DNA of 52,328 bases, taken from positions 1 through 52,328 of IMG/VR virus record IMGVR_UViG_3300048902_000276; one strand, written 5' to 3'. The stretch is from a virus. Lineage: Duplodnaviria > Caudoviricetes. Below are positions 1,786 to 25,938 of this stretch, piece after piece. The notes below the pieces were generated by a model, which searched no databases, was not told the DNA's origin, and saw only the letters and a program-made list of their open reading frames with translations. The position numbers were made by a program, and so were the translations under genes. Within the stretch, counting starts at the first letter, position 1; each line of letters opens with the position of its first letter.

Positions 1786-4028
1786 GCAAAAACTTCAAGA
1801 CCGTGACGGGTCCCGGCGGCGTGTTGCTGGACCCGAACGGTTTTTGGGAGAAGATCTCCGGGACGTTGCCGACGGTGCCGGACGACGGCATCGGAATGTG
1901 GGTCCGCCGCGAGGGAACGGGATACTCAGGGTTCGGCGGACGATGCCTCATATTTTTCTTCACGCCGAATGGGACGGCGAACGACGTCACGGTGTGGGTC
2001 GACTTCTCGACCCTGACGTACAAGCTGACGGTGCCGAGCGGCACTTACGACAGCGGCGTGTCGTCCACGCTGAATCAGTGGGACCATGTTGCGCTCGACG
2101 TCGACGGCAACGGCACGACCTCTGACGTTCGCCTGATCATCAACGGTACTGTCGGTGTCACGAGGACGGCGGAGGCGTTCTCGTGGCCGTCGTTGTTCGG
2201 TTTCTTTCTGGCGGCCGATTCGAACGCCTTCGACCCGGACAAGTTTGACGGCAGCATCGACGCGCCGATCGCGTACCAGGCGTCGCAGGGCTCGGGAGCT
2301 GCGAGCTTCTGGAATACCCAGCTAACGACGGGGTTCGCGCCCGTTGTCACCACGGCCGAGTACAGCTACGTGCGGATGGCTCCCGGTGGGAGTCCAACCG
2401 TTGATACGAGCGGTAACGGCAACGACTATACCGACAATGGTACTTCGCAGGATGGCGCATCGCCCGAGCCGACGTTTCCTACTGCGGCAACGATCGTCGA
2501 TCTCGCGCAGGCGGATGCGCAGGCGCGGCTCCGTAGGATCCGCGGCGATGCGTACTTCTCAGGGGTGATGCCGTCTATACCGGCGGCGCCGGCGGGCTCG
2601 GTGGCCTTCGTGGCGGCGGCCGAGCCGCGCGCGCGCGGCCGATCTCCGATGTCGTACGCAGACGTGATCCCGCCGATCTTCTCGAAGTCGACGGTGGAGG
2701 TGGCGCCGGTGGTGGCCATGGGGAGGCCGCGACCGCGCGGGCCATCCGATCGAGGCGATGTCGTACCCCCGCTGTTCCGCCTGCTGGGCGGCTTCGAGGA
2801 GGTCATCGCGTCGGCCTGGCCGAAACCGAAAGGCCCGAGCGACAAGGGCGACGTCGTCCCCCCGCTCTTCAGGTTGCTCGGGGGCTTCGAGCCGGTGCTG
2901 GCGCCAGGCTGGCCGCGCCCGCGGGGGCCGAGCGATCGCGGTGACGTCGTCCCGCCGCTGTTCCAGCTGCTGGGCGGGTTCGAGCCGGTGTTGGCTGGCG
3001 GCTGGCCCAGGCCTCGGGGACCGAGCGACCGCGGCGACGTGGTGCCGCCGCTGTTTGTCCGGCTGGGCGGCTTCGAGCCGGCGATCGCGCTCGGCTGGCC
3101 GCGCCCGCGCGGGCCTTCTGACCGGGGCGATGTGGTGCCGCCGCTCTTCCGCCTGCTGGGCGGCTATGAGCCGGTCGCCACGAGCTGGTGGCCGCGCCCG
3201 CGCGGGATCGGCGAGGGGACGCTGGTGCTGCGCTCGGTGGCGCTGCCGGGCCCGACCCCGTGGGGGCCCGATCTCGCGCTCGCGGCGCGCGCCTGGCGGC
3301 CGCCGGGCCTGGGGACGGTCTCGACGGACCCGCTGCGCTCGCCCGTGAACCCGGCGCCGACGGCGTGGGGCTACCCGCTGGGCGGCGATCCGGCGGCGCG
3401 CCGGCCGCGCGGGCAGGCCTTCGGCGCCGACCCGCTGCCGCCGGTGCTGGGGTTCGCGCCGAGCTTCGAGCTGGCGATCGCGCTCGCGCAGCGGGCGCCG
3501 CGCCCGCCGACGCCGGGCGACGCCCCCCTGGTGCCGCCGATCTTCCTGCCGGCGGGCTATGAGCAGGCGTCGGCCGAGCGCGGGCGCCAGTACCGCGGCG
3601 CGGCGGCGGGTCTCGAGGCCTTGGGCGCGGTGAAGGCGGCGCTCTGGGCCGAGCAGGCGATCGCCGATCGCGTCCTGCGTCGGATCGCGATGCCGGCGCC
3701 GGACATCCTGCCGGTGGCGCCGCCGCGCGGAATGCTGGTCGAGCCGGTGGAGGCGCGCCGAAGGCTGTGGCGGCCGCCGGCGCCGCCGGCGCCGGAGTCG
3801 CCGAGCTGGCGCTTTGGCCCGCCGCCGCCGGTGCTGCCGTGGGGATACGACACCTTCCGGGCAGACCGGATGCAGCCGAACCCGAAGCGGCTGATGATGG
3901 ACGCGGCGACGGCGGTCTTCCTGGCGATGTATCGTCAGCCGATCATCATGGTGCGCTCTGGGTCGACGAAGGCGGAGCGCGTGGACGGCAGTAGCGGCCC
4001 GACGCGGGCCGAGAAAGTCAGCCCATGA
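1782..4028 (+). CDS. LamG/concanavalin-A-like N-terminal domain plus Pro/Arg-rich repeat region; putative fibre or decoration protein
   Basis: WDHVALDVDG...VRLIINGT...FDGSID pattern typical of LamG-like domains, followed by 31-aa repeats. Confidence 0.6.
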   Translation: MSKNFKTVTGPGGVLLDPNGFWEKISGTLPTVPDDGIGMWVRREGTGYSGFGGRCLIFFFTPNGTANDVTVWVDFSTLTYKLTVPSGTYDSGVSSTLNQWDHVALDVDGNGTTSDVRLIINGTVGVTRTAEAFSWPSLFGFFLAADSNAFDPDKFDGSIDAPIAYQASQGSGAASFWNTQLTTGFAPVVTTAEYSYVRMAPGGSPTVDTSGNGNDYTDNGTSQDGASPEPTFPTAATIVDLAQADAQARLRRIRGDAYFSGVMPSIPAAPAGSVAFVAAAEPRARGRSPMSYADVIPPIFSKSTVEVAPVVAMGRPRPRGPSDRGDVVPPLFRLLGGFEEVIASAWPKPKGPSDKGDVVPPLFRLLGGFEPVLAPGWPRPRGPSDRGDVVPPLFQLLGGFEPVLAGGWPRPRGPSDRGDVVPPLFVRLGGFEPAIALGWPRPRGPSDRGDVVPPLFRLLGGYEPVATSWWPRPRGIGEGTLVLRSVALPGPTPWGPDLALAARAWRPPGLGTVSTDPLRSPVNPAPTAWGYPLGGDPAARRPRGQAFGADPLPPVLGFAPSFELAIALAQRAPRPPTPGDAPLVPPIFLPAGYEQASAERGRQYRGAAAGLEALGAVKAALWAEQAIADRVLRRIAMPAPDILPVAPPRGMLVEPVEARRRLWRPPAPPAPESPSWRFGPPPPVLPWGYDTFRADRMQPNPKRLMMDAATAVFLAMYRQPIIMVRSGSTKAERVDGSSGPTRAEKVSP
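2727..3206 (+). repeat. 93-bp (31-aa) tandem coding repeat, 5 full units plus 1 partial
   Basis: Units begin at 2727, 2820, 2913, 3006, 3099, 3192; consensus PRPRGPSDRGDVVPPLFRLLGGFEPVxAxxW. Confidence 0.95.
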
Positions 4029-17360: not shown

Positions 17361-20022
17361 GCTGGGCGCCGGATGGCTCATGGATACCGCCGTGGTGGAA
17401 GGCGGGGCGCCGCTACTTCCTCCGCATCGGCCAGTTGGACATGTGGGGGTCGCTCGAGTTCATCACGGCGACCGACTTGGTCTTCCGCAACGTCGTGTCG
17501 TCCGCGTCGCAGTCGGGGAGTCTGCCCGCCCTATCCGTCGAATGGGGCGATACGCAGGCGGAAGTGATCGTGTCGCGCGCGGCGAACTTCATCGCAGTGT
17601 GCATCCCGTGCGGATGGACGCCGCCGTCCGACTGGAAGCCACCCGAGGAGCGCCGATGAACAAGCGGCAGCGCCGTCGGCGGCGTTACGTGATCGCGAAG
17701 CGGCGGCGGCGATGGCGGGTGCGGTGCTTCGACGTTCGCGATGCCGTCCTGACGATCAATGGAGTCAGGGTCAACGGCTGGGTGGGCGAAATCGAGGTCG
17801 ACGTCTGATGCCCTGCCACCCGATCCACTTCCCCGGCGGCGGTACGGGCATCGTCTGCACGGCGCCCATGCGCCGGCGCCGATGCGGCGTTGACGGCTGC
17901 CATAGCTGGTGGTGCGAGGTCCTCTGCGACTGGCCGGTGCCGGGCAAGGGCAAGGGTGGCAAGCCGAAGACGTGCGATCGCCCGGTCTGCGAGAAGCACC
18001 GGGTGAAACTGGGCCCGGACCTCGACCACTGCTGGACGCACGTCCAGATGGCGGCGGGAGACCGCCAGGTGCTGGCGGCGGAGCTGCGGCGGCAGGCGAG
18101 CCACTTCCAGGAGGCGACGGCGTTCATCAATCACCGCGACGGCTGCGCGCTCTGCCGGGGCGAGACGAAGCCCGAGGCAATGTGCGCGCTCGGGCGCGAC
18201 AAGCGGGCGGCGTACCGGATCGCCTTCGCCAGGGCGAACGGCCTATCGCCCGCGGCACTGGGGGTGTGATGCGCGCGGATATCGATGCTATCGCGCGGCC
18301 GCGGTGGAAGGTCGTGATCAACGCGATCTTGAGAGCGGTACAGCCATGGCGGCGGAAGTGGGTCATCTACTCGGTGATCGAATGCACATCGCCCCCGCGC
18401 GTGCTGGGGTATGGATTCGGACGCGTGCTGCACGAGGATGGGCCCCGATGATCCGCTTTCACCGCTGCGCGCTGTGCGGGCGCTTCATGAAGCGGTGGCG
18501 GCGCCGGCGCATCCATCGTGTGTGCTGGCGAAAGGCGGAGCGCCGCCATACATTGCATGTTCGGCGGTGATGTGATTGGATGGCGCGCATGGATGAGACA
18601 AAGGCTACGCCGATTCTGGATCAGCTGAGGGTGCTCACGGAGCAGCTCCGCGGACTTCTCTTGAACCCTGAGCCGGGGCTGCTTACGTGGAATACGTTCG
18701 CGGTTCGCAAGTGGGCCGAGATCGTCGACTTGTGGCATCGCGAATCTGCGGTCACGGAGGTGGAGACGCAGGCGAAGTTGCTGCACGAGCGCGAGCACTG
18801 CATCGTCTGCCGGACTGACATGATCCCGGTCAAGCCGGGATGGGGCGAGCTGTTCGAGGAGTCGCGCGAGCGCCACCGCGCCGTCGTTCGCTACAGGTGG
18901 GAGCCGGTGCTGTGAGCAAGCGAACTCGCCCGCGCCGGGCAGCGAAGCGCAGGCGCCGTCGCCACGCCCGAAGGGCTGCGCTGGCAATCGCGTCCCGCCG
19001 GTGCTGCATCAACGCGGCGAACAGGATGGCGGAGCGCTTCGGCGTGATCACCAACTACGCTAGCTGCCGGAACCATGGGGTATTCCAGATCGAAAGGATG
19101 GCCCGTGGCTAGCGACGCCGACATCGTGCACGACCTTCCGTTGCTCGAGGAGTACTTCCTGGCGAGCGGCATCCGCCGGCGCTTCGAGGTCCCGTGCGGG
19201 CGCGGGCGGATCGTGTGGGACCGCTGCGGAGGCCTCACGCGGAAGAGCCGCGCGTGGCGCATCATGGAAGAGGAGCCGCGGCGCGCGCGCTTCCACCCGT
19301 TCCGGCGGCCGCTGGCCCCCCACGTCGAGCATCCGATGATCGTCGACAGCCCAGCCGAGCTGGTGCGGCCGCTGGTGAAGCTGATCAACCTCTTCTGCGA
19401 GGAGGCGAAGCGGCTGACGGCGCGGATCGAGGAGGCATCGGAGCGCTTCGACGATGAGGTGCTGCCGCGGCTGCGCCGGCTGGAGGAACGCCAGTGGGCG
19501 GGCGCGTGGAAGAAGTGAGCGCGAAGCCCGATGTGCTCTGTGAGCATCGCGCCCCGCGCGCCGAGTGCCCGAAGTGCAGCTCGAAGGGAGTGAAGCGGGT
19601 CAAGGTCGGCCACCGCCCAATCGGCGCGGGCGAGATGGTCGTGCTCCGCGGCACCCGCTGCGCCTGTCGTATGAGACGCCGCGAGTACCGATGTACCTTG
19701 GGAGGTAGCGATGGACCAAAAGCACAAGCTGGAGCGAATGCAGGCAGGAATCCGAGCAACTGACGAGCCGACAACGAAGGATGGTAGCGCCGAACGGGCG
19801 GCCGCAATGAGGGAGTGGAGGAACCACGAAGGTACGAAGGTGTTGTTGCGGGCGCTGTGGCGGGAGCGCGATGGGGTGGAGTCGACGATCAATGGACAGC
19901 GACTCGACACGTCCCGGGACATCCTGACGGACGAAAACGCGCGGGCGAGCCTCCTGAGAAACATGGGCAGCCGCGACGGCTTCGACTTCGTGATCGAGGC
20001 CGTCCAGAACACGGGCGGATGA
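17357..20022 (+). other. Cluster of small hypothetical genes (e.g. 17357-17659, 17808-18269 Cys-rich, 18580-18915, 19105-19518, 19711-20022)
   Basis: Chain of short ORFs, mostly ATGA/GTGA-coupled; no recognisable family. Confidence 0.5.
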
Positions 20023-20073
20023 TCTACGTCAGAGGCAGGCGGAGGCTGCAGCTCCATCCGGCCTTCGCCTGTT

Positions 20074-20102
20074 TTGACACGGAGACACACAATGCATATG
20101 GT
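20074..20102 (+). promoter_or_regulatory. sigma70-like promoter with operator (copy 4)
   Basis: TTGACA-17nt-TATGGT; GACACACAATGCATATG at 20084-20100; ATG 6 nt after -10. Confidence 0.7.
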
Positions 20103-20108
20103 GCTCGG

Positions 20109-20558
20109 ATGCTCGCACTGACTATCAAACAGCCGTGGGCGGCGCTCATCGCCGCCGGGATCAAGGGGGTCGAGAACCGCACGTGGTCGATGCGCGTGGT
20201 GCTCGGCCGGCGCATCGCCATCCACGCCGGCATGACGTACGACGAGGACGGCGAAAGCTGGGCCATTGAGCGGCTGCCGTACGCGCGCAGCAGCCGCATC
20301 GTCATGAACAGCCGGGACACGCGCGGCGCGATCGTGGCGACGGCAGTGGTGCAGGAGTTCATCCAGCGCCGGCCGCGCGCGGCGCCGGCCCGGATCTCCG
20401 ACTGGTGGTGCGGTCCCGTGGGCTGGGTGCTGCGCGACGTCTGTAAGCTGGAGGTCCCGATCCAGTGCAAGGGAGCGCAAGGCCTGTGGACGGTGCCGCG
20501 CGACATCGCTGCCCAGCTTGATGCGCTCGCGGGAGATTCGCGGCCGGCGCGGAGGTGA
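20109..20558 (+). CDS. ASCH domain protein
   Basis: ALTIKQPWAALIAAGIKGVENRTW...IAIHAG...GAIVA...KGAQGLW. Confidence 0.9.
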   Translation: MLALTIKQPWAALIAAGIKGVENRTWSMRVVLGRRIAIHAGMTYDEDGESWAIERLPYARSSRIVMNSRDTRGAIVATAVVQEFIQRRPRAAPARISDWWCGPVGWVLRDVCKLEVPIQCKGAQGLWTVPRDIAAQLDALAGDSRPARR

Positions 20559-20573
20559 GCGTACAATCCCTGG

Positions 20574-20885
20574 ATGGCAGAGGACGGCGAGCGCCGGAGG
20601 GTGCTGCGGTCTTGGGGTTTGCGCTTGGCGGTCAACGCGGCGGTCGCTGGCGTTGCTGCGGTGTTCGCGGCGGCGCGCGAGGTCAGCTCATCCCGTACAG
20701 ATCAGATCGCCAGCGCCCGCGCTGAACAGGTCCTGAAGGACGCGCGCATCGCGCAGCTGGAGGCGGAGGTGTCGGCGCTCCGCCAGACGGTGGCCGATCT
20801 GACCGCGTGGCGCATCCGGCACCAGCAGTTCAGCGACGACTACGTTGACCACGCGCGGGAGCGCGAACGGGAGCGGAAGCGCTAG
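20574..20885 (+). CDS. Membrane-anchored coiled-coil protein
   Basis: N-terminal hydrophobic helix then heptad-like IAQLEAEVSALRQTV; TACAAT 6 nt upstream. Confidence 0.55.
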   Translation: MAEDGERRRVLRSWGLRLAVNAAVAGVAAVFAAAREVSSSRTDQIASARAEQVLKDARIAQLEAEVSALRQTVADLTAWRIRHQQFSDDYVDHARERERERKR

Positions 20886-21590
20886 TCGTCGACGGCCTTC
20901 GTGAACGCGTCGCCGCTCTGGTAGCGGTTGTCTTCGAGCTGGTGCTTGTCGGTGAAGGCCTTCCGCTCGTCGTAGCTGCGGAAGACGACGATCATGTAGA
21001 AGTCCTGGCTATCGGCGGCGAGGGCGGCGTCCTTCGCCTCGCGCAGGCTCTTCTCGTGCTCCAGTATCTTCTCGACGGCCTTCTCGACGTTCCTCTTCGC
21101 CTCTTCGTCGTCGGCTGGCGCGCCCACGACGTCGCCGAACAGCTTGTAGATGTCCGCCTCGTCATAGCCGAGCGCGGCGGTGTCGAGGCCTTCGGAGATG
21201 AGCGCCTCGAGTTGCTCGAGATCGAAGTCCCCCTGGGCGGCCGTGTTGTTGAGCCAGGATGTTGGCCTCCTTCTCCTGCTTCAGCGTGAGGCGCACGGTC
21301 GCGACGGTCAGCGTGTAGTCGCTGCACCGTTTCGGGTAGCCCATCGACTTGTCCATCTTCTTCAGGCGCTGGTGCCCGCCGACGAGGTTTCCCGTCGTCG
21401 CGTTCCAGGTGATGGGGACGAGCATGCCTGTCTTGTCGATGCCGCCATCGAGCTTGCGCCGCGCCTCGGACGTCATCATCCGCGGGTTGTAGGTCGCCTC
21501 GTTGAGCTGCGAGCGCTTCACCTTCTCGGCGGTGAAGGCCTCGATGCCGAGGTGGGGGAGCGGGGCTTCGTCAGCTGGCGGGCTTTCCAT
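20882..21590 (-). pseudogene. ParB/Srx-like protein interrupted by +1 frameshift (or sequencing error)
   Basis: YNPR...L..GI...G...PITWN...LVGGHQRL; removing one base at 21254-21255 restores ANILLNNTAAQGDFD and joins ORF 20882-21127 (235 aa). Confidence 0.8.
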
Positions 21591-22272
21591 GGCGATCCTT
21601 GGTCTTGGGGAGGCCGAAGAACTTCCGTCGCCAGACGACGGCTTCGGCGTGGGGGAACAGCTTGAGCAGGCGCGCGAAGTCGCGCGGGTGCTGGTCGTGC
21701 AGCCAGAGGATATCGTTGACCTTGAGGCCGACGCCGCTCATCGCGGTTCCAGACGACGACGGCAGCGGGATGCCGTGGATCTTCAGGTAGCCGATGACGT
21801 GGTCCTTCGACCAGCCGGCGATGGGGCGCAAGATCTTGTCGCCGCGGGTCTTCGCGAACGCCATCAGGCTCGCGCGGTTCGCGCCGTCGGATCGCTTCTG
21901 GCCATCGGCGATCCAGGCGATCCCGGTCTCGCGGCGGACGAGCTCCTGAATGGTGGCGAGCGAGGCCTTCGGCAGCTCCTTCTTCCAGTGCGTGTCGCAG
22001 TACATGCCCGCGCGCATCGCTTGGATGGCCGACCAGTGGAGGTACCGGCGCACCGTGATCCCCCATCTTGACTTCGCGAAGGCGAGCGACTCTTCGTACA
22101 GCTCCAGCCCCGGCACGAATTCCATGATGAAGGCCTCGACCTTGCTGAACGTCCTCACGCAAAGGTCCATCACAGCGAGGGAGTCTTTGCCGCCCGAGTA
22201 GGCGACCACGATCGAATCGAGACGCTCCCGGGCCTTGTTCAGTTCCAGGAGCGTCTCGTCGATGTACTGCAT
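21571..22272 (-). CDS. PAPS-reductase-fold PP-loop protein lacking the Fe-S Cys motifs
   Basis: VAYSGGKDS, GQKRSDG..R, RPIAGWS..V..YL. Confidence 0.85.
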   Translation of the reverse strand: MQYIDETLLELNKARERLDSIVVAYSGGKDSLAVMDLCVRTFSKVEAFIMEFVPGLELYEESLAFAKSRWGITVRRYLHWSAIQAMRAGMYCDTHWKKELPKASLATIQELVRRETGIAWIADGQKRSDGANRASLMAFAKTRGDKILRPIAGWSKDHVIGYLKIHGIPLPSSSGTAMSGVGLKVNDILWLHDQHPRDFARLLKLFPHAEAVVWRRKFFGLPKTKDRHGKPAS

Positions 22273-22275
22273 CGG

Positions 22276-22359
22276 CTAGCCGGAGCCTCCGCCCTTCGCC
22301 TTGCCCCCGCCCTTGCCGCGCTTGGCGCCCTTCGCGCCCTTTCTTTTTGCCTTGGCCAT
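22276..22359 (-). CDS. 27-aa Lys/Gly-rich peptide MAKAKRKGAKGAKRGKGGGKAKGGGSG
   Basis: GAGGAG RBS upstream of ATG; fills the gap between terL and the PP-loop gene; below ORF-track cutoff. Confidence 0.75.
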   Translation of the reverse strand: MAKAKRKGAKGAKRGKGGGKAKGGGSG

Positions 22360-22378
22360 GTGCTTCTCCTCGGTGGGA

Positions 22379-23863
22379 TCAGCCCCCTGTTGCGGTTTCG
22401 GAACCAGATTCGCCTTGATCTCTGTAGGCGTCAAACATGTTGAAGCCCCGGACCAGCTGACGGAACGCGCCAGCGCTCGCGTCCACGGCGTCGTCGTGGA
22501 TCTCCTTCTTCGGGAATCCTTCCATCTGGTTGAAGTAGTGCTCGTTCCACGGCGCGCGGATGACGTCGACGTTGCCGCCCTGCCACTGGCTCGCGAACGG
22601 GTCGGCGCGAGTCTCCTTGTCGCCGGTCTCGACGTCGGAGAACAAGCGGTAGCCGACGAGCAGCTTCACGTAGCTCGCCACTTGGTCTTTGCCGGCCTGG
22701 CCGGGGTCTTGGGGGATCCCGATCTTCACTTCGGAGCCGTCGAGCCGCGCGGTCTTCAGGATGTCCTTGCGCACGTCGTCGGAACGCTTGCGGAGCGCGA
22801 GCGCATGCAGCACCACGAAGCGGCCGTTGGAGCGCTTGCCGATCTTCACGCCGTACGTCCAGTCGGGATCCTTGTTCGTCTCGCTCGGCTCGGTGGCGGC
22901 GAGGTCCCAGCGCCGGATGATCTGGACGAGGTCGGTCGGGACGGCGTCGAGCATCGTGACCTCGATGCGCTTGAAGTAGTCGCCGGCGGCCGCGCGGATC
23001 TTCCAGTTGCCGTCGAGAAGACGCGCGCGCAGCACGCGCGTCATGGACATCAGGTTGCCGCGGTAGCCGGGGTTGGCGCGCTCGAGGATCCTGTTCTCCT
23101 CGAGCTTGCCGGGGATGAACGTGAGCGACTTGATCAGCTCTTGGCTGACGCGCTCACGTGGCAGTCCGGTGTTCCGGACGGAGGTCTCGATCGCCTCGTG
23201 GACGTCGGGGCGCTTCTCCAGCTCGGCGCGCGTGTCGGCCCAGATGATCTCGTCGCCCAGGCGGATGAAGTAGCGGTGGACGCCGGCGCGCTCTGGGATC
23301 GGCAGGCCGTACCGGGGCGAGTCGGGGTCCTGCTCGATCCACCAGGCGATCAGCTCGGCGACCCAGCTGTCAGCGTCGGGGTTGCAGCTCGCGATGATGT
23401 ACGGGCGGACGCCGCACGTGCTGCGATTCCTCGACAGCATGTACCAGAACATCGCCGCCGTGAAATGCGTCAGCTCGTCGAAGATGATCAGCGGCAGCTC
23501 CGAGCCCTGCCAGTTCTCGACGGTCTTCTCGTGTTCGAGGTGCGACATCTTCACGTAGGCGCCCGACGGCCAGGTCCACGTGAGGTCTCCGACCTTCGGC
23601 TTGGCGCCGAGGAGCGGGTAGAGCCGGCGCGACTGGTCCCACAGCGCGCCGGGGTTCGTGATCTGCGGCGTCGTGCGCCGGAAGAAGACGGCCGAGTAGT
23701 CGGGGATGTGCGTCCACGCCGCGGCCGCCATCAGCTCGACGAAGCTCTTGCCGCAGCCGGCGGCGCCGCCGGCGATGGTGATGTCGGCGCCGCTGCTAAG
23801 GACCTTGGTCTGGAACCCCCGCTGCGGCCCGATGATGCGAGGAGGGGTAACGACGGTGGGCAT
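22379..23863 (-). CDS. terL: Terminase large subunit
   Basis: GPQ motif, Walker A GGAAGCGKS, Walker B LIIFDELTHF, ASCNP, nuclease WDLAA...HDDAVDA. Confidence 0.95.
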   Translation of the reverse strand: MPTVVTPPRIIGPQRGFQTKVLSSGADITIAGGAAGCGKSFVELMAAAAWTHIPDYSAVFFRRTTPQITNPGALWDQSRRLYPLLGAKPKVGDLTWTWPSGAYVKMSHLEHEKTVENWQGSELPLIIFDELTHFTAAMFWYMLSRNRSTCGVRPYIIASCNPDADSWVAELIAWWIEQDPDSPRYGLPIPERAGVHRYFIRLGDEIIWADTRAELEKRPDVHEAIETSVRNTGLPRERVSQELIKSLTFIPGKLEENRILERANPGYRGNLMSMTRVLRARLLDGNWKIRAAAGDYFKRIEVTMLDAVPTDLVQIIRRWDLAATEPSETNKDPDWTYGVKIGKRSNGRFVVLHALALRKRSDDVRKDILKTARLDGSEVKIGIPQDPGQAGKDQVASYVKLLVGYRLFSDVETGDKETRADPFASQWQGGNVDVIRAPWNEHYFNQMEGFPKKEIHDDAVDASAGAFRQLVRGFNMFDAYRDQGESGSETATGG

Positions 23864-24399
23864 CAGCCCTGCTCGCCGCCGCCCTCGTCTTCTCGCGGCG
23901 GGTCGAGGTCGGGCGGAGCTTCGGGTAGCTCGCTCGGCTCGGGGCCCTCGACGTCAGCGTCTGCAGCGCCGGTGTCTGTGCCGGCGCCGTCCTCGGACAG
24001 AATCTCGCCGGGCGCTGGCCCGCGGCCGTTGTACGGCACGTACATCACGACGGGCGCGACGCCGCCGGCGCCGGTGATCTCGAGCTTTTGCTTGCCGTCG
24101 CCGATGAGGACCTCGGCGATCAGGCGCTGGCTCAGCGGGTTGCCCTTCATCGCGGTGACGTACATCGCGAACATGACGTTGCGCCAGCGCTCGACGTGCT
24201 CGCCGTCCTTGTTCGAGAAGTCCTTGTCGCGCTCGCGAAAATACTTCTTCATCGCGCTGATCCAGCGCGAGCCGTTGATCCCCTTCTTATTGCGAACCTC
24301 GCCGGGCTTGATCGGCTTGAGGTTCTTCTTCCACTGCGGTTCTTTCGGAGGTGACGCCCCATCGTCACCTCCGCCCGGTGGCTTCGCGTAATCGGGCAC
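23863..24399 (-). CDS. terS: Terminase small subunit (DUF5681-like)
   Basis: NLKPIKPGEVRNKKG motif, KLEITGAGG; directly upstream of terL. Confidence 0.7.
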   Translation of the reverse strand: MPDYAKPPGGGDDGASPPKEPQWKKNLKPIKPGEVRNKKGINGSRWISAMKKYFRERDKDFSNKDGEHVERWRNVMFAMYVTAMKGNPLSQRLIAEVLIGDGKQKLEITGAGGVAPVVMYVPYNGRGPAPGEILSEDGAGTDTGAADADVEGPEPSELPEAPPDLDPPREDEGGGEQG

Positions 24400-24402
24400 G
24401 GG

Positions 24403-25938
24403 CTACTCCTTCTGCTGTTTGTTCTCCGGCGGCTGCTGGTTGCCAGCGCCGCCCTCGGCGCCCGCGGACAGAGCCTGACGCGCCAGCTCGGCGTCGTTCT
24501 CCTGCTGCTCGGCCACGGCCTCCGCGTCCTCGACATCAGCGGGCTCGAGGACCTCGTACGTGCCGTCGTACTTGAGCTGGCGGGCGATCACGCCCACGTC
24601 GATCGCGCCCATCTCCTTGTAGACCTTGTCGCGGTTCGCGCGGTTCACCTGCGCGGTGCTCTTCTCGACGTCGGTCAGCTGCCAGAGCGGGTTGAAGACG
24701 ATCTTGAAGTGCTCTGGCATGCGGCCGAAGACGGAGCGGAGCAGGATGTTGTAGAGCCGCATTAGCTGCGGCAGCATCTTCGTCTTCTGGTCCGCGTGGA
24801 TGCGGTCGTAGTAGTTGCGGAGGTCGCTCTCTCCGGTGGCGCTGAGGCCCGTGGGCGACTGCGCGAAGAACCTCGTGACGGGGATGTCGGCGGCGCCGGC
24901 CAGGTCCAGCATCGCCATGCGCCAGACCTCGGGGATTCCGCCGAAGGCGATCTGCTTCTGCTGGAACTTGTCCTTCACGTCCAGCACGAGCGTGTTCGTG
25001 ATCGACTTCAGCAGCGCGGCATCGCGGAAGCGCGCCTGCGCGATCTGCAGGCCGTTCTTCGAGGTGAGCAGCTCGCCGAGGCCTTCGACGAGCTGAATGT
25101 CGACGTTCGCCTCGTCCATCAGCGCCATGATGGCGGCGCGCGCGTGGTCGTAGTCCTTGCAGTTCTCCATCACGCGCTGGACCTCGGACGCGTGCCAGTA
25201 GCCGTTGCGCTGGAACGCGTAGTAGGGCAGCTCGTAGCCGTCGAAGCGGATGACGCGCGTCCAATGCACGATCGGCTGGAAGCTGCCCGACGATCGGATC
25301 TGGTATGACGACGGGTAGCCCATGTTGGGGCTCTCCGGGTCTTGGTCGAGGGGCCCGGTCGCAGCGATGCGCCAGCGATCGAGCACGTGCAGGAAGATCA
25401 GGTCGTCCTTCCCGATGCGGTCGATGTCGAGCGGCTGCGACATGTCCTGGTCGTTGCGGAAACCAGGAACGATCGCGCAGCCGCCGTAGAGCCGCGCCCA
25501 CTTCCTGGCCTGGAAGACCTTCAGGGGGATCAGGAAGTTTTCCTCGGCGGCCTGGAGCGCGTCACGGCCGCCCTGGTCCTTGTCGTAGCCGTCCCACGAC
25601 GGCGTGATCCACTCGCGGACGCTGTCCTCGGCCGGGATGTTGACGGTTTTCCCGGTCGACCAGCTCGTCTGGTACATGTTGTCGAGCGTGATCTGGCTGA
25701 TCTGCCCGACGGGCGCGTAGTCGGTGTACGTCCGCTTGTCGCGCGAGGTCCCGATCCCGGAGGCGAGGTTGATCAGCTGGTCGAAGCCAGGGATCCGGGC
25801 GCGCGCGAGCTGCAGCAAGTTGGCGGCGGCCGGAAGCTGCGGGGGAGACGGTGCGGGCGGCGGCGCGACGTCGAGAGCGCCGAAGGCGGCGCGGGCGACC
25901 CCGTTCACTCTGGCGCGGAGACCTTCGAGCATGGGCAC
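24403..25938 (-). CDS. Portal protein (DUF1073 family)
   Basis: MYQTSW...IPAED..REW, WARLYGG, HWTRVIRF, GAADIPVTRFFAQSPTGLSATGESDLRNYYD, FNPLWQ. Confidence 0.9.
   Translation of the reverse strand: MPMLEGLRARVNGVARAAFGALDVAPPPAPSPPQLPAAANLLQLARARIPGFDQLINLASGIGTSRDKRTYTDYAPVGQISQITLDNMYQTSWSTGKTVNIPAEDSVREWITPSWDGYDKDQGGRDALQAAEENFLIPLKVFQARKWARLYGGCAIVPGFRNDQDMSQPLDIDRIGKDDLIFLHVLDRWRIAATGPLDQDPESPNMGYPSSYQIRSSGSFQPIVHWTRVIRFDGYELPYYAFQRNGYWHASEVQRVMENCKDYDHARAAIMALMDEANVDIQLVEGLGELLTSKNGLQIAQARFRDAALLKSITNTLVLDVKDKFQQKQIAFGGIPEVWRMAMLDLAGAADIPVTRFFAQSPTGLSATGESDLRNYYDRIHADQKTKMLPQLMRLYNILLRSVFGRMPEHFKIVFNPLWQLTDVEKSTAQVNRANRDKVYKEMGAIDVGVIARQLKYDGTYEVLEPADVEDAEAVAEQQENDAELARQALSAGAEGGAGNQQPPENKQQKE

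Follow-up and report, generated by a model that had tools for sequence, protein, structure and literature searches.

The window analysed here is an entire IMG/VR virus record of 52,328 bases (IMGVR_UViG_3300048902_000276; Caudoviricetes), with a G+C content of 67.7%, which is classed as linear and estimated to be 57% complete. Along its minus strand the genes run in the order portal, an open reading frame (ORF) of 178 residues, the large terminase gene terL, a 27-codon ORF, a PP-loop enzyme of the PAPS-reductase family and a ParB-like gene (Table 1). Comparison with related loci indicates that the last three of these belong to a conserved phage cassette made up of a polycationic mini-protein with a Gly-rich tail, a PP-loop enzyme, a ParB/Srx-fold protein and, often, an ASCH-like protein. 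The layout proposed in the initial annotation was borne out on inspection: a short ORF preceded by a GAGGAG site directly follows terL; the enzyme, which has an SGGKDS loop and no CxxC motif, starts three bases further on, the TAG of the mini-ORF being followed by CCG and then by the enzyme's ATG; and the enzyme overlaps by 20 bases a 142-residue ParB-like ORF containing GGHQR (21162-21590, minus strand).

Table 1. Features of the cassette and its neighbours in the window.
Feature	Coordinates	Strand	Evidence or remark
Portal gene	24403-25938	-	Pfam Phage_portal_3, 8.7e-92
178-residue ORF, no family match	23863-24399	-	
terL (large terminase), upstream neighbour of the cassette on the same strand	22379-23863	-	Pfam Terminase_6N, 6.6e-23; Terminase_6C, 2.7e-11
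GAGGAG Shine-Dalgarno-like site	22366-22371	-	Six bases ahead of the mini-protein ATG (22359)
27-residue polycationic mini-protein with Gly-rich C-terminal tail (GGGSG end)	22276-22359	-	ORF translation; TAG at 22276-22278
233-residue PP-loop ATP-pyrophosphatase-fold enzyme, PAPS-reductase family	21571-22272	-	Pfam PF01507; SGGKDS
ParB/Srx-like N-terminal domain (GGHQR), first part of frameshifted gene	21255-21590	-	phrog_9353; tblastn; Foldseek
C-terminal part of the same ParB-like gene, other frame	20882-21254	-	Translation; tblastn to relatives
ASCH-like gene, convergent with the cassette, possible fourth member	19815-20558	+	phrog_3193, 2.6e-33

The mini-protein has an extreme composition, with a net charge of +10, an isoelectric point of 12, 37% Gly and 37% Lys plus Arg, and 23 of its 27 codons have G or C in the third position. 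Of the 468 small ORFs in the window, the mini-ORF is one of only four in which a basic body is joined to a Gly tail; the remaining three lie out of frame within long genes. Logan contigs of two sequencing runs from two studies (X1 and X2) hold the mini-ORF without any difference.

Loci with relatives of the enzyme were gathered from viral contigs, species genomes and metagenomes, and 62 were kept at a tblastn E-value of 2e-16 or lower; these include the duplicate pairs L004/L076 and L095/L096, each of which is counted twice. We scored as a tail ORF any ORF on the enzyme's strand that had 15-130 codons, a net charge of at least +4, at least three Gly in its last eight residues and a stop between 143 bases before and 30 bases after the enzyme start. 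A further 80 loci had weak enzyme matches (E-value of at least 1e-10), of which 55 served as a negative control; the other 25, most of which match just a short N-terminal stretch of the enzyme, were left out. A basic Gly-tailed ORF occupied the slot upstream of the enzyme in 49 of the 62 related loci, compared with 4 of 303 control slots upstream of other ORFs of at least 150 codons in the same loci and none of the 55 distant PAPS-family loci. Of the 49 tails, 43 end in Gly and six have a Gly run followed by one to four further residues. An earlier and stricter count over the first 37 loci had found the tail ORF in 29. Six-frame translation of the gaps upstream of enzyme homologues had been set beforehand as a check, with the absence of any small basic ORF to count as refutation; the frequency of K/R/G-rich Gly-tailed ORFs in these gaps means that the idea survives it.

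These loci are taxonomically and compositionally diverse. The named hosts of those found in genome records range from Bryobacteraceae, Terracidiphilus and Gemmata to Clostridia, Coriobacteriia, Desulfovibrio and Dechloromonas, and locus G+C spans 33%-69%. The mini-proteins known so far are low-complexity polycations of 23-65 residues that come in two styles. The window's style, of which 18 sequences were aligned, starts with MAK, is rich in Lys and Gly and closes with a run of Gly ("MAK...GGG"); the other, with 21 aligned, is Arg-rich and ends RRKS-x-GG-x-GG, and its invariant columns are the initial Met and three Gly of the terminal GGxGG, and nothing else. A profile of the Arg-rich set matched 71 protein clusters among 5.8 billion, none of which has a Pfam domain and which their sources label at most "hypothetical protein". 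An exact GG end was found in 68 of these 71 relatives; the retrieval is partly circular, in that the profile contains the motif; where the stop codon falls is not dictated by it. In a midpoint-rooted FastTree phylogeny of the enzymes, the window's clade was the main home of the Lys/Gly style and the second clade that of the Arg style; from this tracking of peptide style with enzyme clade we conclude that the pairing is old.

Judged from this conservation, the mini-protein gene is genuine and under selection, and its association with the enzyme predates the division of the enzyme family into two clades. The product is small, probably disordered and strongly basic; all that is conserved in it is the charge and a Gly-rich tail, whose last residue is nearly always Gly. 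No match was found for ten mini-proteins in Pfam and PHROGs or for two in NCBIfam and PADLOC, and a search of the ESM Atlas with two returned a single match, at 0.78, to an unnamed cluster. Two Gly-tailed basic mini-ORFs, placed one after the other or on either side of the enzyme, occur in some relatives: locus L009 has its second (3629-3847) between the enzyme and the ParB-like gene, and pairs were seen in two others (L037, 2700-2819 and about 2827-2952; L001, 2732-2860 and 2864-2989).

The window by itself might invite a simpler reading, in which the mini-ORF has no product of its own: it could have arisen by chance in DNA of 68% G+C, reflect the ribosome-binding site of the enzyme, or form an N-terminal extension of the enzyme when the in-frame TAG is read through. 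Mini-ORF and enzyme share one reading frame with just the single TAG and CCG between them (22270-22278), the sequence GGAGG lies within the tail codons 13 bases ahead of the enzyme ATG, and three more ORFs of the window satisfy the mini-ORF criteria by chance. The related loci make this reading extremely improbable. Chance does not account for the difference between enzyme slots and control slots, and the tail ORF is present at 33-42% G+C too (L007, L030 and L035). We rejected a ribosome-binding-site origin of the Gly codons on several grounds: 15 of the 49 tails end at least 25 bases before the enzyme start, too far to act as such a site; the tail Gly codons are GGC or GGT in 166 of 212 cases (GGC 112, GGT 54, GGA 27, GGG 19); and such a tail occurs at 1 of 102 ordinary long-gene junctions in these loci. 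Read-through was rejected because the 25 aligned homologues all start where the enzyme's own Met lies and have no basic extension, and because the distance from tail stop to enzyme start varies from -17 to +133 bases, so that the frame relation varies as well; given these varied gaps and frames, the shared frame in the window looks coincidental. A search for longer fused forms of the enzyme at E-values up to 0.001 found none, which is weak evidence, and none of 17 N-terminal extensions inspected among the best 150 family representatives was a Gly tail. Moreover, the 71 such proteins in the public sources had already been called as genes there. In a Dechloromonas metagenome-assembled genome (L044, 2947-3020) the enzyme ORF seems to open with a basic, Pro-rich extension of about 16 residues, and a separate Gly-tailed ORF is still found upstream.

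The enzyme is a PP-loop ATP pyrophosphatase with no close solved relative. It scores 38.7 bits against Pfam PAPS_reduct (PF01507; cut-off 22.5) over residues 21-170, which places it above the gathering score for this family of the adenine nucleotide alpha-hydrolase fold, and it matches phrog_424 at 5.1e-11. The family is moderately large, with 518 representatives clustered at 50% identity at E-values up to 1e-30 and 1,173 up to 1e-10, among 1.84 billion. SGGKDS occupies residues 26-31, and S26, G28, K29 and D30 are invariant across 26 sequences; the intact, invariant loop argues for chemistry that converts ATP to AMP and, with the fold, groups the protein with the adenylating PP-loop ATP pyrophosphatases. 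The enzyme has just two Cys, both outside the C-terminal third, and no CxxC: Cys38, which almost all family members share, and Cys92, which does not vary within the close clade. The protein is basic (isoelectric point 9.7, net charge +11), as nucleic-acid enzymes often are, and we count this in favour of the mechanism proposed below. An AlphaFold2 model had a predicted local distance difference test (pLDDT) score of 91.1 and a predicted template modelling (TM) score of 0.87. Its best Foldseek matches in the Protein Data Bank were TtuA (including the TtuA-TtuB complex, 5gha), TilS, LarE, NcsA and plant APS reductase, at TM-scores of about 0.5, and NAD and GMP synthetases were also among the structural matches; the root-mean-square deviation of the TtuA and NcsA matches was 14-17 Å over the full alignment. 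When a profile of the enzyme was compared with Protein Data Bank sequences, Cap9 (9nto) was the best match, at 2.1e-6 and only locally over positions 133-174, and TtuA came second at 4.5e-6; CysD matched too. In the closest database homologue (P0002, 399 residues) about 95 residues are duplicated internally and the C-terminus is extended by a long basic segment, which may be an artefact of assembly or gene calling.

Several more specific identities were tried and rejected. CysH carries its catalytic Cys in a C-terminal ECGLH-type motif, and the enzyme falls far short of a true PAPS or APS reductase (NCBIfam cysH 20.1 bits against a cut-off of 165.1; PAPS_reductase 19 against 254.2); the NCBIfam equivalogs for CysH, APS and PAPS reductase, TilS, LarE and NadE all scored far under their cut-offs. 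Against identity with DndC, SspD or BrxP stand matches confined to short stretches (PADLOC BrxP 6.7e-6 at residues 13-48 only; DndC 0.004 at about 21-45), the two Cys and the lack of an ATPase gene in the cassette. CxxC zinc fingers and three Fe-S cysteines are the hallmark of the TtuA/NcsA thiolases, a group to which a protein with no CxxC and a TM-score of about 0.5 does not belong. Nor does it fit the QueC family of Cap9 and QatC: there was no PF06508 match, PADLOC QueC matched at 0.0034 over residues 19-53 only, and the conserved Gly tail here is C-terminal.

The downstream gene belongs to the ParB/Srx superfamily by profile, fold and GxxR box. The 142-residue ORF matched phrog_9353 (4.2e-30) and other ParB-like PHROGs, and tblastn matches to relatives span its residues 3-120. 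A profile of nine ParB-like relatives matched ParB (4umk, 5.5e-5) and Spo0J (6sdk, 9.5e-4), Foldseek searches with a model of pLDDT 75.8 returned ParB, Noc, KorB and sulfiredoxin, and GGHQR, the GxxR box, is invariant in the relatives; Pfam ParB_N scores were below the cut-off (16.5-19.1 bits vs 26.3). The best matches of the N-terminal domain were to the ParB domain of phage and type II methyltransferases (PADLOC MTase_II 1.7e-21, and 2.8e-9 for the window's own copy; phrog_498 2.4e-29). The C-terminal half, of about 130 residues, had no family match. A one-base frame shift near 21254-21257 splits the gene in the window. In nine relatives a single protein of 232-293 residues runs across the break and reads EKE-x-N-I/L-x-(L/F)-N-N there, and in L003 the two parts adjoin in one frame (1081-1374, then 1375-1713, by tblastn). 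Logan contigs of run X1, which may be the window's source sample, cross the break without an indel, so the frame shift is not an artefact of one assembler.

The partnership with a ParB-like gene that the initial annotation had proposed was upheld: such a gene follows the enzyme in 50 of the 52 loci with enough downstream sequence, starting in most of them about 600-900 bases past the enzyme start, and all three genes are present in 41 of the 52. ParB domains are reported to be frequently fused to methyltransferases in phages (PMC12704722), and ParB-like DndB and DpdB are described as partners of DNA-modifying enzymes, DndC in the case of DndB (PMC10853773; PMC12839542). The kinship of the partner with ParB domains of DNA-modification systems is the main reason to think that the cassette acts on DNA.

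Enzyme and ParB-like gene also occur together in cultured phages. They lie just upstream of terS, terL and the portal gene in Lactobacillus phage LR1, Riemerella phage RAP44 and Bacteroides phage BS-TP2; the window differs from these in that the cassette comes after terL. In BS-TP2 (L146, PQ571275.1, 1867-5586) the genes encode an ASCH protein (gp52), a 53-residue hypothetical protein ending in Gly (gp53), a PAPS reductase (gp54) and a ParB-like protein (gp55), followed by a DUF5681 protein (gp56) and TerL (gp57). A terL gene was also identified downstream in L012 and L024 by Pfam (2 of 10 neighbour ORFs tested) and in L037 by tblastn. With terminase neighbours in the window, LR1, RAP44, BS-TP2, L012 and L024, the proposed link to packaging genes held, and the cassette tends to land beside packaging modules. 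Co-transcription with the packaging motor had been suggested as well, and this part of the proposal is plausible for the window, where the cassette is on the same strand as terL after a gap of 19 bases, and does not generalize: in other phages the cassette is upstream of terS and terL, and 14 loci with a related terL have the order 178-residue gene, terL, portal and in no case the enzyme. When the window's terL, 178-residue protein and portal were searched against the cassette loci, there was one weak terL match (L037). A shared packaging module as carrier of the cassette was therefore rejected, and the two results together show that the cassette moves between packaging modules. The packaging module of the window has been rearranged to the order portal, 178-residue gene, terL (22379-25938), and the cassette takes the usual place of the portal.

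ASCH-like genes are the fourth recurrent element. Flanks were searched by tblastn with four queries, namely the window's ASCH-like gene and the genes upstream of the enzyme in phages JNU_P7, RAP44 and BS-TP2, and matches were found in 23 of the 62 family loci, none of the 80 distant loci and 1 of the 14 terL-related loci. They lie mostly in convergent orientation just beyond the ParB-like gene, as in the window, or directly upstream. In JNU_P7 an ASCH gene stands upstream of the enzyme in place of the Gly-tailed ORF. The Pfam ASCH cut-off was passed by the JNU_P7 copy only; that of RAP44 fell just below it, and the ASCH label in BS-TP2 is the depositor's annotation only. ASCH proteins such as YqfB are reported to be amidohydrolases of N4-acylcytosine derivatives (PMC6972931; 10.64898/2026.02.27.708502), and the association might thus be a lead to the kind of bond that the cassette makes, short of a demonstration.

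These observations led us to consider a mechanism in which the mini-protein's C-terminal Gly is adenylated by the PP-loop enzyme and its tail is then attached to phage DNA or a protein, a tentative reading to which we give a little less than an even chance. The flexible Gly tail would enter the PP-loop active site, where its free C-terminal carboxylate would react with ATP to give an acyl-AMP and pyrophosphate, and the activated tail would then be passed to an amine. The likeliest acceptor would be an exocyclic base amine in phage DNA held by the ParB-like protein, with a protein lysine as the alternative, and the outcome would be DNA bearing polycationic peptide tags around the time of packaging. 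The link could be of the N4-acyl-cytosine type, which would account for the ASCH neighbours: as N4-acylcytosine amidohydrolases, these could read or remove the tag. That the tail is the conserved part, that the stop falls right after Gly and that the peptide is kept unfused would all be in keeping with use of the tail. No ThiF-type ubiquitin-activating (E1) enzyme, cysteine desulfurase or JAB peptidase was found in the 52-kb record (57% complete), which leaves the PP-loop enzyme as the sole adenylating candidate on that record. Its fold is also that of adenylating PP-loop enzymes that work on nucleic acids or accept a Gly tail, with TtuA, TilS and LarE as the best matches. The most specific form of the proposal, in which an E1-free PP-loop enzyme ligates the mini-protein to the phage's own DNA bases, for example as N4-peptidyl-cytosine, with the ParB-like clamp guiding the reaction and the ASCH amidohydrolase reversing it, we regard as unlikely; it could be called DNA peptidylation.

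Co-folding of enzyme, peptide and ATP had been put forward as a check and gave weak support. The 52-codon version of the ORF scored 0.35 (runs 0.39, 0.31 and 0.35), against 0.00 for the best of three controls, with contact agreement of at least 62% between runs and a partner pLDDT of at least 46. In calibration 58 of 80 solved complexes passed the mark, as did 2 of 110 mismatched pairs; scores up to 0.60 included just 7 of the 80 solved complexes and both of the mismatches.

A number of points weigh against activation and transfer of the tail. The co-fold pass is of a weak kind that mostly proves wrong for guesses that were not already likely, and it gave no interface and did not place the tail at ATP. 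Beyond the tail there is no charge complementarity between peptide and enzyme, both of which are strongly basic; a shared nucleic-acid substrate fits this better than a tight protein-protein complex. C-terminal Gly activation is known for E1-like, ATP-grasp and glutamine-synthetase-like enzymes and is not known for the PAPS-reductase family. The window's own tail is GGGSG and not GG, 6 of the 49 tails would need trimming of one to four residues, and the cassette has no peptidase. No tail ORF was detectable in 13 of the 62 loci, nine of which keep the ParB-like gene. In cultured phages, RAP44 has a 44-residue basic ORF that ends NGAI, and the enzymes of LR1 (L072) and JNU_P7 (L147) have a degenerate loop, SMGKDS, and no Gly-tailed ORF upstream, an indication that peptide and canonical loop may be lost together. 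The frameshifted ParB-like gene means that the copy in the window may not be fully functional. The ASCH association is moderate, the matched control being small (1/14), and the window's own ASCH-like ORF is below the Pfam cut-off (E-value 0.0016-0.0037). Runs X3 and X4 cover small parts of the stretch only, and no RNA run was listed as holding it.

Two other functions were weighed against transfer of the tail. The mini-protein might be a non-covalent cofactor or regulator, a DNA-binding polycation like protamine or DndE that recruits or gates the enzyme and the ParB-like protein on DNA or condenses DNA for packaging, its tail docking in the enzyme unused while the enzyme modifies DNA or a nucleotide alone. 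A net charge of +10 in 27 residues and a sequence that is free beyond charge and tail are what non-specific DNA binders would have, and the nine loci that keep enzyme and ParB-like gene without a detectable tail ORF, like the SMGKDS enzymes of LR1 and JNU_P7, also speak for this function. DNA binding alone leaves unexplained, however, why the stop comes right after Gly-Gly in nearly all Arg-style database relatives, why the tail is the only invariant part and why the peptide stays unfused, and the tandem second tail ORFs in L009, L037 and L001 resemble consumable tags more than a regulator. On balance we find this function rather unlikely.

The mini-protein could also be a sulfur carrier, its Gly tail converted to a C-terminal thiocarboxylate while the enzyme adenylates a DNA site and inserts sulfur to form a thio-base or a phosphorothioate. 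Counterparts would be TtuA, which acts with TtuB on tRNA, and DndC, SspD and BrxP, which act on DNA; TtuA (with TtuB, 5gha), NcsA and LarE are among the best structural matches of the enzyme, in which Cys38 is nearly invariant and Cys92 is invariant in the close clade. DNA phosphorothioates are reported to be made by the PAPS-reductase-domain proteins DndC, SspD and BrxP (PMC12914056), and DndB is reported to be a ParB-superfamily partner of DndC (PMC10853773). The enzyme has, however, no Fe-S or CxxC motif and two Cys only, and the PADLOC BrxP and DndC models match its PP-loop stretch alone (13-48 and about 21-45). The record encodes no cysteine desulfurase or E1, and there is no ATPase like DndD, SspC or BrxC among the three cassette genes. 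A low-complexity peptide of 27 residues cannot adopt the beta-grasp fold of known carriers; a carrier would not require strong positive charge; and the ASCH neighbours would be left unexplained. We therefore judge a role in sulfur transfer to be quite improbable.

Transfer of the tail by the PP-loop enzyme, the reading that we prefer, has partial precedents in several known systems. As here, in TtuA-TtuB and in NcsA/Ncs6 with SAMP2/Urm1 a PP-loop enzyme acts on nucleic acid with a small partner ending in Gly-Gly, and TtuA takes the Gly-Gly tail of TtuB. The cassette enzyme resembles TtuA at a TM-score of about 0.5 and has neither its zinc finger nor its Fe-S cysteines; the partner is a polycation of 23-65 residues and not a beta-grasp protein like TtuB, there is no E1-like activator in the record, and the context is packaging and ParB instead of tRNA. 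Ubiquitin-like and ThiS-MoaD carriers were rejected as identities for the mini-protein: the C-terminal Gly is present, but 27 residues would leave no room for a beta-grasp fold, no family model matches and there is no ThiF in the record (57% complete). Pup is a disordered protein with C-terminal GGQ or GGE that is ligated by the glutamine-synthetase-like PafA, and the mini-protein resembles it in being small and probably disordered with Gly-Gly near its end; one relative (L006) ends in GAGQ. Cap9 of type IV CBASS and QatC of QatABCD likewise pair a PP-loop adenylating enzyme with a partner that has an unstructured Gly-bearing tail, and these QueC-family enzymes are reported to modify that tail (10.1101/2025.04.06.647259; PMC13279940). 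They differ in belonging to the QueC family (PF06508), in using the partner's N-terminus, in adenylating a deazaguanine carboxylate and in serving host defence; the cassette has a PAPS-reductase-family enzyme, a C-terminal tail and a mini-protein partner and is phage-borne.

On the DNA-modification side, the DndB-DndC, SspD and BrxP modules are likewise described as having a PP-loop enzyme with a PAPS-reductase domain beside a ParB-superfamily protein and as acting on DNA (PMC10853773, PMC12914056). Unlike these Dnd, Ssp and BREX systems, which have no Gly-tailed peptide, the cassette lacks Fe-S cysteines, a cysteine dyad, a DndD/SspC/BrxC ATPase, DndE and a desulfurase. ParB-domain phage methyltransferases and DpdB, the ParB-like ATPase of Dpd, are also comparable (PMC12704722, PMC12839542), as the cassette's N-terminal domain matches the methyltransferase ParB domain, although here there is no methyltransferase or transglycosylase and the partner is a PP-loop protein. 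Further counterparts are the IbrA/IbrB-like or "PAPS reductase + ParB-like nuclease" pairs: the same two genes stand beside terS-terL in LR1, RAP44 and BS-TP2, and viromes are reported to list IbrA with IbrB/ParBc (PMC4490671). The enzyme and ParB pair is thus already annotated in phages. A small Gly-tailed ORF is not mentioned in the papers on IbrA/IbrB-type pairs that were searched, and LR1 and JNU_P7 lack one. The YejK-type nucleoid proteins found with PAPS reductase in clusters described as PANGU-like (10.64898/2026.04.06.716658) were set aside as large proteins of a different system.

The cassette combines known kinds of system, namely ParB-guided DNA modification and the pairing of a PP-loop enzyme with a Gly-tail partner. 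No description of a Gly-tailed mini-protein with a phage PAPS-reductase-like enzyme was found in the literature searched, a search that did not extend to the supplementary tables of the ParB and Dnd/BREX surveys, and a link between ASCH proteins and the cassette was likewise not found in that literature or in Pfam, PHROGs, NCBIfam and PADLOC. Since BS-TP2 is cultured and carries the whole cassette, bench tests are feasible; BrxP-type phosphorothioation has been reported in strains of its host species (PMC12914056).

"PAPS reductase" and "ParB-like nuclease" genes next to phage terminases are usually annotated as auxiliary metabolic or hypothetical genes. That a mostly unannotated mini-protein belongs to the pair turns them into a testable system with a candidate substrate, and shows more generally that an enzyme's missing partner can be encoded by a neighbouring ORF of under 60 codons. 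Activation and transfer of the tail, if they occur, would represent a third prokaryotic route to activation of a C-terminal Gly, beside the E1-like enzymes and the Pup ligase, and possibly the first case of a ribosomal peptide attached to DNA as a modification, with a bearing on phage escape from restriction, BREX and Dnd-type defences and on DNA packing. A real link between DNA and peptide would be categorically new, and DNA peptidylation, if true, would constitute a new class of DNA hypermodification that would neutralise charge for packaging and shield the phage genome from host nucleases.

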